IMG/VR virus record: IMGVR_UViG_3300033514_000074
Location: 1 to 16,592 of that record
Source of the DNA: a virus
Length of the DNA: 16,592 nt
Reading direction: 5' to 3' (one strand)
This document shows, in pieces, positions 2,827-6,063 of this stretch. Within the stretch, counting starts at the first letter, position 1. The number at the start of each line of letters is the position of its first letter. The notes beneath the pieces were generated by a model. That model was not told where the DNA came from and searched no databases. It saw only the letters and a program-made list of their open reading frames with translations. The translations under genes were made by a program, and so were the position numbers.

Positions 2827-2920
2827 GTTGTTAAATAATTATTTGATTAATAATATAAAAATATAAAACTATATATTAAAGTTGAAAATTCATTTTTTAT
2901 ATATAAAAATAAAAAATATT

Positions 2921-3322
2921 ATGACAGAAAAATTCCAAACTTATAGAATATTACATGTTGAGGATGAAAAATTATTCATCACTATGGTAAAATTAATGCT
3001 TAATGACAAGATGTTCATTATTGATAATGCTGAAAATGGTAGTGAAGCTGTTGATAAAGCATTTAAAAATATTTATGACATAATATTAATGGATGTTTAT
3101 ATGCCAATAATGGATGGTAGAGAAGCTGCTAAAACTATTAAATCTATGTTACCTGATTTACCAATAGTGGCATTATCTGCTTGTGAATTATCTGATTTAG
3201 CAGGTCTTCCACAATTTGACCATATTATTAGAAAACCAGTTACTAAACAAGTGTTATGGGATTCAATTATTGAAATTGCTGATGAATATATCCAATTTAA
3301 AAATGACAAAAAGAAAAAATGA
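2921..3322 (+). CDS. Stand-alone CheY-like response-regulator receiver (REC) domain protein
   Basis: Sequence is MTEKFQTYRILHVEDEKL...NGSEAV...YDIILMDVYMPIMDGREA...LPIVALSA...FDHIIRKP. All REC hallmarks are present: acidic pocket (EDE), phospho-acceptor Asp in LMD, conserved Ser/Thr in ALSA, and Lys in KP. The ORF track starts at a TTG (2882); the ATG at 2921 preceding the conserved core is the more likely start. Its stop overlaps the next gene's ATG (ATGA). Confidence 0.75.
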   Translation: MTEKFQTYRILHVEDEKLFITMVKLMLNDKMFIIDNAENGSEAVDKAFKNIYDIILMDVYMPIMDGREAAKTIKSMLPDLPIVALSACELSDLAGLPQFDHIIRKPVTKQVLWDSIIEIADEYIQFKNDKKKK

Positions 3323-3410
3323 TAAGTAAATTTAATCAATATATTAATGAAGGTATTAGAGATAAAATGACACCTAAATCAGAAGATGATATTAGAAAAT
3401 CTTTAGAAAA
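3319..3410 (+). repeat. Copy 1 of ~60-90 nt DNA repeat encoding the conserved N-terminal leader
   Basis: The 21-mer gataaaatgacacctaaatca is identical to copy 2. About 80% identity over ~90 nt with 3876-3965. Confidence 0.7.
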
Positions 3411-3873
3411 GTTACCACCTTTAGAAAGAATTACAAAAATCTATCATAATAATGCACAAGATTTATATACTAGGGATGAAATAAATGAAATATTAGAACA
3501 TATAAATCCAGTAGGTATATTAGAAATCGCAATATATTATTTACAAGATTTAGAATTGGTTAAAAAATTAATTAAAGAAGGGGTTGATTTATCTGTTGAT
3601 AATAATGCTTTTTTAAAAGCCATTATTATGGATGACCATTATGATAATAATATAGTTGATATTCTTGATGGTGATTTAACTAAAGAATATAAGCATCTTA
3701 CTGAAAGTTGGTTTACATGTCATTGTTTAGATGAAAGTGAAGAAGATCAAGAAAAAATTATGAATTTTTATAAAGAAGTTCTTAAATTATTTCTTACAGA
3801 CCCAAGAGTATATAAAAAATTAACAGCAATTGAAATAGTAGGGTATCGTACCTTATTAGGAATAAATCAATAA
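3319..3873 (+). CDS. Paralog 1 of leader-bearing family (MISKFNQYINEGIRDKMTPKSEDDIRKSL...), weakly ankyrin-like
   Basis: 184 aa. Shares a ~30-aa N-terminal leader with the next two genes. The central region LELVKKLIKEGVDLSVDNNAFLKAII is ankyrin-like. ATGA overlap with the upstream REC gene. Confidence 0.6.
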   Translation: MISKFNQYINEGIRDKMTPKSEDDIRKSLEKLPPLERITKIYHNNAQDLYTRDEINEILEHINPVGILEIAIYYLQDLELVKKLIKEGVDLSVDNNAFLKAIIMDDHYDNNIVDILDGDLTKEYKHLTESWFTCHCLDESEEDQEKIMNFYKEVLKLFLTDPRVYKKLTAIEIVGYRTLLGINQ

Positions 3874-3875
3874 AT

Positions 3876-3965
3876 ATGAAAAACTTTAACCAATTTGTAA
3901 ATGAAGGTGTTAGGGATAAAATGACACCTAAATCAAAAGATGATATTAAAAAATCTTTAGATGAA
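3876..3965 (+). repeat. Copy 2 of leader-encoding DNA repeat
   Basis: The first 29 nt, atgaaaaactttaaccaatttgtaaatga, are identical to 4883-4911. Confidence 0.75.
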
Positions 3966-4886
3966 TTGGCACCACAAGATAGGATTCAAACAATATATAA
4001 AAATCAAGTACAAAATTTATATACAGATAAAGAACTTAAAGATATATTTAATCAATTACCAAAAGACAAAAAATTTCCTATAATACTTAATTTTGGAGCT
4101 GGAAATTTATATACAGAAGATGAACTAAAACCTTATTTTAAAGATTTATCACCTAAAGAAAAAATAGGACAAGGAACAGAATATAATTTATTGTGGGTTA
4201 TTAAAGATGGTGTAGAACATTTACCAAAAAGGTCATATAATTGGTCAACAGTTTTAAATCGTGCAATATTTAGAGATATTGAAATTGTAAAATATTTATT
4301 GGATAATCTTACTATTAGACCAGATGATTTAAATTGGGCTATTACTGCATCTGATAAAATTGATAAAATTGATAAAAATCAAAAAGAAATAAAAAAATTA
4401 CTAACAGATAAGAAAAAAGAAATTTTATTAGGTAAAGAAAATTTTAATGATATATTAAAACATGCCTGTAAAGTAGGTGATTATAATTTAGCAAAAAGTG
4501 CAATAAATAATGGTGCTAATATAGAACATAAACAAGGAATATATCTATTATATGATGCAATAGATTCAAATAGTATAGAAATTATAAAAATGTTATTAGA
4601 TCTCGGTGTTAAGACTGATTCTCAAAATATATATCCTACACCAATAGGAAAAGCCATTAAAGATAATAATAATGTTGAAGTAGTAAAATTATTAGTAGAA
4701 TATGGTGCAAGAATTGAATTTTCTAATTGGGGTTTATTAAAAGATATAATAGATTGGATAAAAAAAGGTGGAAAAGATGAAATGATTAAATATTTAATGA
4801 CTAAAAATGATGTGGTAAAAGAAAAAATACAAGAACATATTAATGAACTTCAAGAAGAAACAAAATTATTCCAAAAATATTTATGA
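3876..4886 (+). CDS. Paralog 2: ankyrin-repeat protein with conserved N-terminal leader MKNFNQFVNEGVRDKMTPKSKDDIKKSL
   Basis: 336 aa. The C-terminal half has clear ankyrin repeats (ILKHACKVGDYNLAKSAINNGANIEHK...; IEIIKMLLDLGVKTDSQN...; VEVVKLLVEYGARIEF). It starts 2 nt after the previous stop, and its stop overlaps the next ATG. Confidence 0.7.
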   Translation: MKNFNQFVNEGVRDKMTPKSKDDIKKSLDELAPQDRIQTIYKNQVQNLYTDKELKDIFNQLPKDKKFPIILNFGAGNLYTEDELKPYFKDLSPKEKIGQGTEYNLLWVIKDGVEHLPKRSYNWSTVLNRAIFRDIEIVKYLLDNLTIRPDDLNWAITASDKIDKIDKNQKEIKKLLTDKKKEILLGKENFNDILKHACKVGDYNLAKSAINNGANIEHKQGIYLLYDAIDSNSIEIIKMLLDLGVKTDSQNIYPTPIGKAIKDNNNVEVVKLLVEYGARIEFSNWGLLKDIIDWIKKGGKDEMIKYLMTKNDVVKEKIQEHINELQEETKLFQKYL

Positions 4887-4955
4887 AAAACTTTAACCAA
4901 TTTGTAAATGAGGGTATTAGAGATAAAATGTTACCTAAATCAGAAGATGAATTAC
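4883..4955 (+). repeat. Copy 3 of leader-encoding DNA repeat
   Basis: 29-nt identity with copy 2, then about 85% identity through gataaaatg...cctaaatcagaagatga. Confidence 0.75.
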
Positions 4956-5653
4956 AATCTGCTTATAATAATTTAATTAAAGATATAAATAATCCATTAT
5001 CTACATATCCATATGGAATTAATAGGGAATTTCAAGAGATTGCCGATTTATTTAAACTAAATAAAAAAGATTTACATTTAATTACAGAAGATAATGATAA
5101 ATGGAATTTATTAGATGAATTATTTACAAAATATACAGAAAATATAGAGAATAAAATAATTGAAGTAAAAGAAACAGAAACAGAATATGGTGGTGAATGG
5201 GTATGTTGGTCTGATAAAAAATTAGCATATTGGAATAGTAATGAAATAAATGATGTTAATGCATGGATATTCTATAAAAATGATTTTGTAAATGAATCTA
5301 TTAGAGATAAAATGTCACCTAAATCAGAAGAAGATATATTAAATTCTTTAAAAGGATTATCAACACATCAAAAATTAATGTTAGGTTGTAAGAATGATAG
5401 TGTATTAGCAGTTAAATTAGTAATGGAAGAAGATGAACAAAAAAAGGATGAAGAAGATGAAAGTATCATACATATAGATGATGAATGGCCACTTAGAAAA
5501 GCATGTAAGGAAGGTTCTCTTGAAGTTGTTAAATTTTTATTAGATAATGGTGCTGATGTCCATGCTTGTGATGATGATGCATTTTGGGTAGCAAGAGGAA
5601 ATAGACCATTAATTAAATTATTAAATAGTTATAAGTATAAAAAAAAGAATTAA
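4883..5653 (+). CDS. Paralog 3: two leader modules (aa 1 and aa ~133) plus a C-terminal ankyrin repeat
   Basis: 256 aa. N-terminus is MKNFNQFVNEGIRDKMLPKSEDEL. An internal second copy is YKNDFVNESIRDKMSPKSEEDILNSL. The C-terminus LRKACKEGSLEVVKFLLDNGADVHACDDDAFWVARGNRPLIKLL is a canonical ankyrin repeat. Confidence 0.7.
   Translation: MKNFNQFVNEGIRDKMLPKSEDELQSAYNNLIKDINNPLSTYPYGINREFQEIADLFKLNKKDLHLITEDNDKWNLLDELFTKYTENIENKIIEVKETETEYGGEWVCWSDKKLAYWNSNEINDVNAWIFYKNDFVNESIRDKMSPKSEEDILNSLKGLSTHQKLMLGCKNDSVLAVKLVMEEDEQKKDEEDESIIHIDDEWPLRKACKEGSLEVVKFLLDNGADVHACDDDAFWVARGNRPLIKLLNSYKYKKKN
5279..5350 (+). repeat. Copy 4 (internal) of leader-encoding DNA repeat
   Basis: gattttgtaaatgaatctattagagataaaatgtcacctaaatcagaagaagat inside gene 4883..5653. 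This indicates module duplication or fusion. Confidence 0.65.
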
Positions 5654-6008: not shown

Positions 6009-6032
6009 TAAAGTTTTTTATTCTTATATATA

Positions 6033-6063
6033 AAAAAACCATTTGATTTTTCAAATGGTTTTT
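6033..6063. terminator. Bidirectional Rho-independent terminator
   Basis: aaaaaaACCATTTGAttttTCAAATGGTttttt is a 9-bp stem with a 4-nt loop, an A-run on one side and a T-run on the other. It sits immediately downstream of the minus-strand MVP gene stop (6068). Confidence 0.7.

Follow-up and report, generated by a model that had tools for sequence, protein, structure and literature searches.

Two-component signaling is regarded as cellular equipment, and phage copies of it are occasionally annotated; to our knowledge, none of these copies has been studied. A REC-containing gene of phage V22 was listed as a class II auxiliary gene (PMC7289586). Moreover, cRec domains, which have the receiver (REC) fold and keep the catalytic Asp residues, were proposed for jumbo phages; they are described as divergent, never linked to histidine kinases and located in NAD+/RNA-repair gene neighborhoods (PMC7824862). 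The V22 table entry and the cRec proposal were all that the literature on phage and megaphage response regulators yielded, with nothing on the family described here, and the REC families of PHROG are all annotated as "unknown function". Here, a stand-alone receiver of 133 amino acids (aa), hereafter REC, was analyzed, which is encoded at positions 2921-3322 (+) of the virus record IMGVR_UViG_3300033514_000074. This stretch of 16,592 bp (the window) is an entire metagenomic contig with 25% G+C, and REC is the first cistron of a four-gene unit in it. With REC, a very well-known domain family gains a new member that is confined to phages and placed in an unusual genomic context: it belongs to a phage-only receiver family, predicted to be catalytically intact, that is fixed in the virion module of a megaphage clade.

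The receiver protein and its relatives

REC matched Pfam PF00072 (Response_reg) over residues 10-112 with 60.2 bits, about twice the gathering score (cut-off 30.2), and an E-value of 2.5e-16. The ATG at 2921 and not the TTG at 2882 was taken as the start codon, because every orthologue starts there and because a promoter-like motif lies inside the TTG extension. Alignment with E. coli CheY revealed the acidic metal-binding pair E14-D15 (codons 2960-2965, corresponding to D12/D13 in CheY), the predicted phospho-acceptor D58 (3092-3094, D57 in CheY), S86 (3176-3178, T87 in CheY) and K105-P106 (3233-3238, K109-P110 in CheY), all on the + strand. Residues D15, D58, K105 and P106 are invariant in the REC family (23-27 relatives, down to 48% identity; 27 relatives in the case of D58), E14 is retained in at least 90% of the sequences and position 86 is always S or T. 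The complete stand-alone receiver with acidic pocket, Asp, Thr/Ser and Lys that had been claimed in the original prediction was confirmed by this comparison. A pseudo-receiver, in which the Asp or the Lys is lost, had been named there as the alternative; D58 and K105 showed no substitution in the alignment. The pairwise ratio of nonsynonymous to synonymous substitutions (dN/dS) of REC was 0.11-0.30 in seven loci, and REC is under purifying selection.

The AlphaFold2 model of REC (mean predicted local distance difference test, pLDDT, 90.4) showed a (beta-alpha)5 fold with five strands and helices 1, 2, 3 and 5. The alpha-4 region (residues 87-100) was mainly coil with one 3-residue helical turn, and this segment is 2-4 residues shorter than in each REC aligned pairwise. 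The switch position occupied by Y106 in CheY is Ile or Leu in the REC clade and Tyr or Phe in the outgroup RECs P0033 and P0035 (~50% identity). Helix alpha-1, the usual docking helix for kinases and Hpt proteins, is strongly conserved in the family (KLFIxMVKLML). The template modeling (TM) scores of the model to solved receivers in Foldseek were 0.75-0.84. A recent horizontal acquisition of the gene was considered from its base composition and found to be unsupported, as GC (27%) and GC at third codon positions (GC3, 17%) lie inside the range of the neighboring genes. Altogether, REC is a real, intact and selected receiver that would apparently be able to accept a phosphoryl group.

A word-indexed protein search gave 37 proteins at E <= 1e-5, and 35 of them were single-domain proteins of 109-134 aa with 50-100% identity to REC. 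All of the approximately 35 REC orthologues lie on phage-like metagenome contigs. No orthologue was found among 185,579 species-representative genomes, in which nothing exceeded 48% identity, and the annotated phage collection held no close relative (best match 39% identity). The best matches in the species genomes were the C-terminal receivers of Flavobacteriaceae hybrid kinases (38-40% over near-full length); a stand-alone REC of Marinifilum was 48% identical over residues 1-87, and the top matches were spread over many phyla, Bacteroidota included. Among cellular proteins, REC is most closely related to the receiver domains found in hybrid histidine kinases (35-44% identity). From the 180,101 REC matches of an exhaustive HMMER search, ten with high per-domain identity were picked for a Pfam scan: nine were multi-domain proteins, seven carried HisKA and/or HATPase_c beside their receiver domain and some also contained Hpt. 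The best sequence match in the Protein Data Bank (PDB) was the AHK5 receiver (4euk, E 4.5e-12), the top Foldseek matches were hybrid-kinase receivers, GacS D1, the ChpT-CtrA complex and Sln1-R1, and the best NCBIfam matches were the LuxN, BarA and ArcB receivers, with all scores far under the family cut-offs. Because of these best matches in the HMMER, PDB, Foldseek, NCBIfam and species-genome searches, REC is to be regarded as a conventional receiver of hybrid-kinase/phosphorelay flavor and neither as a chemotaxis CheY nor as a divergent cRec. The term "CheY-like" used in the original prediction is appropriate at the level of the fold, but a chemotaxis context was lacking: no che genes were found in any examined REC locus, and the NCBIfam CheY models scored far below their cut-offs (CheY_Halo, 51 bits vs. 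200).

Gene order, transcription unit and leader-bearing cassette

Sheath, tube and hub genes are located on the window, which is therefore part of the virion module of a huge phage whose tail genes are of the T4 type. The 1143-aa tail sheath showed 49% identity across 96% of its length to the sheath of the 735-kb uncultured phage LR756501 and weaker matches to those of other 460-640-kb phages, Lak phages and T4-like phages. The tail tube protein belongs to PHROG 45; PHROG 634, the T4 gp51-type baseplate hub assembly catalyst, was matched as well, and a hub-region protein is encoded next to it. These T4-type sheath, tube and baseplate-hub-like genes on the contig substantiate the assignment of REC to a phage.

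REC is followed on the same strand by ORF2 (184 aa, 3319-3873, +, leader MISKFNQYINEG...), ORF3 (336 aa, 3876-4886, +, leader MKNFNQFVNEG...) and ORF4 (256 aa, 4883-5653, +, N-terminal leader). The predicted ATGA overlap between the stop codon of REC and the start codon of ORF2 was read directly at 3319-3322 (+); a second ATGA overlap joins ORF3 and ORF4 (4883-4886, +), and the spacing between ORF2 and ORF3 is 2 nucleotides (nt). Tight or overlapping junctions of REC and the next gene were also found in the related loci L001, L002, L004, L006 and L010, and their geometry varies (14-nt overlap in L002, 1-nt gap in L001, 1-nt overlap in L006 and L010). A REC-ORF2 fusion through -1 slippage, for which the A-run preceding the ATGA would be the site, was considered and rejected, as junction geometry and frame offset vary among the orthologues.

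The promoter-like motif TTTATATATA was found at 2896-2905 (+), 16 nt upstream of the REC start, and is the sole such motif before the four-gene unit. The exact sequence TATATATA occurs in 9 copies in the window, 8 of them intergenic, with non-coding DNA making up 9.5% of the window. Copies precede the start codons of REC, the tail tube gene, the hub-like (hub-region) gene and a 116-aa ORF by ~17-40 nt, and versions with one mismatch stand before the sheath and other genes. The motif was located at 521-530, 1883-1890, 2898-2905, 6025-6032, 10047-10054 and 13709-13716; no copy is present between 2906 and 6024, so that none lies inside the four-gene unit. It is kept upstream of REC in L001, L002, L004, L006 and L010. 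The start codons downstream of TATATATA are preceded by A-rich leaders without Shine-Dalgarno-like sequences. T4 late promoters (TATAAATA) are the obvious analogy, and TATATATA may be regarded as a candidate phage promoter consensus. A scan for sigma-70 promoters was uninformative in this sequence of 25% GC (46 matches vs. 38 expected). Because the motif stands before REC and is not found within the unit, REC, ORF2, ORF3 and ORF4 would form one transcription unit, driven by a promoter of the type that also serves the neighboring virion genes. The motif common to REC and to the tail tube and hub genes suggests that REC is co-expressed with virion genes.

The gene order is common to seven independent loci, in which a hub-region gene (-) is followed by REC (+), one to three leader genes and then a gene for a protein resembling the major vault protein (MVP-like), the tube gene and the sheath gene (-). 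The leader genes abut or overlap REC in these seven loci, and their number and set vary. In the window, the 826-aa MVP-like protein (6068-8548, -; major-vault-protein shoulder 1.6e-26, Vault_3, weak SPFH/Band-7 matches) is encoded between the cassette of leader genes and the tail tube gene. Its gene is kept in the REC-bearing lineage and is not found at the syntenic site of LR756501 or of the sister lineage described below. Among the relatives of the sheath, only the one with 74% identity has both the REC orthologue and the MVP-like gene. In a sister lineage (sheath 61%, hub 70% identical), the tube and hub genes flank a stand-alone REC of 126 aa, which is encoded on their strand (L185 13831-14211; L191 17517-17897). 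It is ~40% identical to the REC of the window and keeps DD, D, S and K, but K-P is replaced by K-D and the switch residue is aromatic; neither the MVP-like gene nor the cassette is present at its tube/hub junction. No REC was found at this junction in lineages with a sheath identity of <=53%, LR756501 included. RECs of 52-53% identity in L009 and L162 stand in a different gene context. In the region 1409-4452 of L162, the 53%-identity REC is located downstream of NAD synthetase-, isochorismatase/nicotinamidase- and nicotinamide phosphoribosyltransferase-like genes, as judged by eye from N-terminal sequences.

Either the free receiver at the tube/hub junction may predate the cassette, or receivers may have been captured there repeatedly. 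Because the sister lineage has REC without the cassette, virion genes and not ankyrin genes are the consistent neighbors of REC, and the link between REC and the ankyrin genes looks positional and not functional. A functional tie to the putative injected proteins, originally drawn from operon membership, was not borne out: the connection is one of adjacency only, given the sister REC without a cassette and leader genes located away from REC.

All three downstream proteins carry the leader, as had been predicted, and the ankyrin assignment held for two of them: ORF3 contains ankyrin repeats (Pfam Ank_2, 4e-13) and ORF4 a C-terminal ankyrin repeat (Pfam Ank, 4.9e-6), whereas ORF2 had no ankyrin match even at E<=1. 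The leader consensus of the three ORFs is MxxFNQ(F/Y)(V/I)NEG(I/V)RDKMxPKS, and the wider leader of ~28 aa reads MKxF(N/K)xF(V/I)NE(G/S)(I/V)RDKMxPKSxE(D/E)I. Copies are encoded at 3319-3400, 3876-3960 and 4883-4965 in the window and, elsewhere, at L010 9904-11526, L004 497(+) and 3978(-), L015 10847(+) and L016 13386(-). The leader is also repeated within proteins, as if to mark cleavage points of a polyprotein: a protein of 540 aa has three copies, and ORF4 has a second, internal copy at ~aa 134-151 (about 5282-5335). LR756501 has the leader MKTFNQFINEG, and the leader is thus kept among megaphages whose sheaths are only 49% identical. In L004, LR756501 and L016, leader-bearing genes lie far from any REC.

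The cargo behind the leader differs by locus and comprises ankyrin repeats, a ParB/Srx-like "IIDGxHRAN" module and unknown domains, whereas REC and the leader are constant. A C-terminal module shared by cassettes of relatives (L002 10874-11323, L004 10957-11796, L006 8126-9124), "YPPIVVD...IIDG(I/T)HRAN...ILAF(V/I)G", resembles a ParB/sulfiredoxin-type motif, has no Pfam match and is not found in the window cassette. The REC-ankyrin arrangement, for which a search of related phages had been suggested, is seen as an order of REC and leader genes in seven loci, in which the cargo is not always ankyrin.

The N-termini of T4 ipII and ipIII read MKTYQEFIAE|A and that of ipI MKTFKEF.... The capsid-targeting sequence of T4 comprises the first ten residues; positions 4 and 7 are important for targeting, and positions 8 and 10 (L/I-x-E) for proteolysis by the prohead protease gp21 (PMC9026906). 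The sequence MKNFNQFVNE|G of the downstream ORFs fits the capsid-targeting sequence of ipI, ipII and ipIII at positions 4, 7, 8 and 10; the aromatic residues at 4 and 7 are alike, and position 8 is V or I in the window leader. T-even internal proteins are hypervariable behind a conserved tag (PMC3012670), and the cassette family likewise combines hypervariable cargo with a conserved leader. Unlike the T4 leader, the window leader has ~28 aa, runs past the putative cleavage site and recurs inside proteins. Since the leader matches the T4 sequence at the key positions, ORF2-ORF4 are good candidates for packaged and ejected proteins, in line with their earlier designation as putative injected proteins. 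REC itself has no T4-type leader. An early delivery of REC together with these proteins was not supported, because of the missing leader and because the promoter-like motif points to synthesis with the virion genes.

Phage kinases and the possible role of REC

No ORF of the window matched HisKA, HATPase_c or Hpt, in agreement with the original statement that a histidine kinase is absent from it. This says little about the genome, because the contig comprises no more than these 16.6 kb. When a kinase core was used as tblastn query, a match was obtained in LR756501, which encodes a 737-aa PAS-PAS-HisKA-HATPase_c-REC hybrid kinase (L014 3909-6122; LR756501 36067-38280) and also a 123-aa intact stand-alone REC. 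The family of this kinase was found with 50-78% identity across many phage-like contigs, and its cellular relatives belong to Bacteroidota (33-43% identity). A pseudo-receiver of 117 aa with Asn at the acceptor position and without K-P is encoded in LR756500 (L012 3998-4351). Three IMG/VR contigs (L118-L120; 97.9, 640 and 676 kb; 24-26% G+C) encode a 775-aa REC-PAS-HisKA-HATPase_c-REC kinase and an intact stand-alone REC of ~121 aa, 42-45% identical to the REC of the window; the distance between the two genes is 12 kb, ~49 kb (given a circular genome) and 44 kb, respectively. The kinase contigs looked up for the LR756501-type family had no sample in common with the REC contigs; the IMG/VR scan showed that sample 3300037067 holds one of the three contigs and also a contig with a true REC orthologue. 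The combination of a phage-borne kinase with a free receiver is thus a recurring pattern in the megaphage group. An origin of REC from the own REC of a phage kinase was rejected: the identity was 26-31% for the LR756501 type and 37-42% for the 775-aa type, values that do not exceed those of cellular RECs. A tblastn search for Hpt against the phage collection gave no match with this insensitive method.

The REC gene belongs to one clade of AT-rich huge phages, the host of which is probably a member of Bacteroidota, because Shine-Dalgarno-like sequences are missing, the leaders are A-rich and the phage kinases have affinity to Bacteroidota. A lack of Shine-Dalgarno sequences fits what is established about translation initiation in Bacteroidota.

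We tentatively favor, at somewhat less than an even chance, that REC accepts phosphoryl groups as a diffusible member of a His-Asp pathway and that its partner is a kinase encoded by the phage. REC would be made together with the neighboring virion genes and, because it has no capsid-targeting leader, would remain cytoplasmic. Its D58 would be phosphorylated by a hybrid-type histidine kinase or an Hpt protein. As REC has no output domain, has Ile or Leu at the Y106 position and a shortened, barely formed alpha-4, it would most likely receive, shuttle or drain phosphate as a diffusible protein, or simply bind other proteins, and not work as a classical alpha4-beta5-alpha5 switch. The phosphate donor could be a phage kinase, encoded in a part of the genome that is not sequenced, or else a hybrid kinase of the host; the phage kinase is favored because related megaphages carry hybrid kinases on contigs with stand-alone RECs of like type. 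The ankyrin cassette would be a variable insertion within the transcription unit and no proven partner of REC in function. The data show the fold, the active-site residues, their conservation, purifying selection, synteny and the joint occurrence of kinase and REC in relatives; that REC is phosphorylated, by which partner, when it is expressed and whether it works as a sink or shuttle are inferences.

Several observations weigh against this proposal. No kinase or Hpt gene was found within 10 kb of REC in seven related loci, and among the 120 relatives of the LR756501 kinase listed, none lies on a contig whose length equals that of a REC-family contig (248,662; 75,592; 63,115; 28,077). Kinase-bearing contigs were not among the top 80 sheath matches, and they may not be close relatives of the window phage. 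The RECs of the kinase contigs (42-45%) are no closer to the window REC than the best cellular RECs (40-48%), and with an identity of only 42-45% they would be putative orthologues at best. The outgroup RECs P0033 and P0035 and the REC of the sister lineage keep the aromatic switch residue, so that the argument for a sink rests on a clade-specific feature. Finally, TATATATA also precedes non-structural genes, and a "late" timing is therefore tentative.

Instead of serving a phage kinase, REC might mimic the receiver of a host hybrid kinase, drain or divert phosphoryl groups of host kinases or Hpt proteins and thereby silence or rewire host two-component responses in the course of infection, with no phage kinase involved. 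This possibility, which we consider rather unlikely, is consistent with the 35-48% identity of REC to cellular hybrid-kinase receivers, with Bacteroidota among the top matches, with the strong conservation of the docking helix alpha-1, with an architecture of a single domain that suits a sink, and with the lack of a kinase in the ~20-kb neighborhoods of the seven loci. However, related megaphages carry hybrid kinases themselves, and the top matches span many phyla and point to no particular donor lineage. Moreover, REC would be absent at the start of infection, because it has no leader and has a promoter-like motif in common with virion genes. The interception of host kinases put forward in the original prediction thus agrees with a conserved single-domain receiver but is not the sole reading, given the kinases of the related megaphages; a phosphorelay run by the phage is at least as probable. 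It is also quite improbable that REC is a structural protein of tail, baseplate or head, or an assembly factor, without a signaling function (or, if ejected, an early decoy). Its place within the tail/baseplate block is kept in two lineages, the sister REC lies on the strand of the structural genes and the promoter-like motif is common with these genes; but the complete set of phospho-chemistry residues, invariant under purifying selection, would be unneeded for a purely structural role, and a T4-type targeting leader is not present on REC.

A role of REC as partner of the cassette, in which it would bind, chaperone or gate the leader-bearing proteins (for loading into the prohead or holding them inactive), with or without phosphorylation, appears very improbable. 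The presence of REC with at least one abutting or overlapping leader gene in seven loci and the conservation of both REC and the leader next to variable cargo speak for it. Against it stand the leader genes far from REC (L004 497(+) and 3978(-), LR756501, L016), the sister-lineage REC without a cassette and the other context of the 52%-identity REC in L009 and L162. In addition, the T4 targeting sequence works without an adaptor (PMC9026906). That REC is an enzyme with a REC fold, a cRec-like phosphoesterase acting on cyclic phosphate or ADP-ribose derivatives outside His-Asp signaling, is barely credible, even though cRec keeps its catalytic Asp residues and occurs in jumbo phages (PMC7824862) and the 53%-identity REC of L162 lies near genes that by eye resemble NAD-salvage genes. 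REC is a conventional Response_reg protein with its closest relatives in histidine kinases, whereas cRec is divergent and never linked to kinases, and no NAD/ADP-ribose or RNA-ligase genes were found beside REC in eight loci.

The diffusible phospho-acceptor proposed above can be extended to megaphages that own a His-Asp phosphorelay, in which a PAS-domain hybrid kinase would sense the state of the infected cell and phosphorylate REC, and REC in turn would tune some late step, for example assembly, the timing of lysis, or which of the ejected leader proteins are chosen or loaded. This extension is clearly unlikely; if true, a virus-owned phosphorelay would be a two-component decision circuit instead of a host-mimicking decoy. 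If kinase and receiver are partners, huge phages would sense and compute by their own phosphorelay, a new layer of infection control; a REC that drains host kinases would instead amount to a compact inhibitor, of natural origin, of the hybrid two-component systems of Bacteroidota. Stand-alone receivers recur across the megaphage group and related genomes carry hybrid sensor kinases. REC is more interesting within this broader pattern, in which huge phages of the group carry two-component hardware.

Surrounding genes and comparison with known systems

Two endonuclease genes are located within the virion module of the window: a homing/HNH endonuclease (1927-2826, -; DUF723 and treble-clef repeats) and an EndoVII/HNH-like endonuclease (8627-9301, -). 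The former was found in the window, L001 and L004 and is missing from L002, L006 and L010, and this patchy distribution fits the expectation for a mobile homing element. A partial ORF that runs off the 5' end (1-520, -) encodes the N-terminal part of a BspA-type leucine-rich-repeat protein, the counterpart of which in L001 (4566-7601) has 1011 aa. A hairpin with a perfect 13-bp stem and flanking T-runs on both strands (6034-6063), which looks like a bidirectional terminator, separates the MVP-like gene from the promoter-like motif that precedes the 116-aa ORF. Two tandem small paralogues, each starting with MKIKKFNE (15809-16147 and 16172-16423, -), neighbor a 477-aa M28/PepT-like peptidase homologue with an eight-lysine run, RRKKKKKKKKSRNKSKN (14355-15788, -). 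No tRNA genes and no Rfam matches were found in the window.

Compared with the described systems, REC is closest to the receivers of hybrid kinases. AHK5-RD (4euk), GacS D1 (7qz2), Sln1-R1 (2r25) and the receivers of Flavobacteriaceae have the same fold and the same five active-site positions, with Foldseek TM scores of 0.77-0.80 for hybrid-kinase receivers and 38-44% identity of REC to the cellular ones, and those of Flavobacteriaceae also have an aliphatic residue at the Y106 position. In contrast to them, REC is free-standing without a kinase fusion, is encoded by a phage and has an alpha-4 that is 2-4 residues shorter. As a lone REC without an output domain, it resembles the single-domain response regulators Spo0F, CheY-type sinks, DivK, CpdR and MrrA, which work by phosphotransfer or protein binding as shuttles, sinks and hubs; MrrA was described as a hub (PMC5964349). 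Spo0F was among the structural matches of REC in Foldseek and CpdR among its NCBIfam matches. However, these regulators are not encoded by phages, they are not orthologous to REC and the NCBIfam scores were far under the cut-offs.

The likeness to cRec consists in the occurrence in very large phages and in the conserved aspartates; unlike cRec, REC is conventional, has kinase-like affinities and lies in a neighborhood of virion genes. We know of no earlier phage-borne REC gene that was studied mechanistically and thus of no functional precedent. In comparison with these genes, the REC of the window represents a distinct family of one megaphage clade only, which occupies a fixed place at the tube/hub junction as the first gene of a unit whose other members bear the leader.

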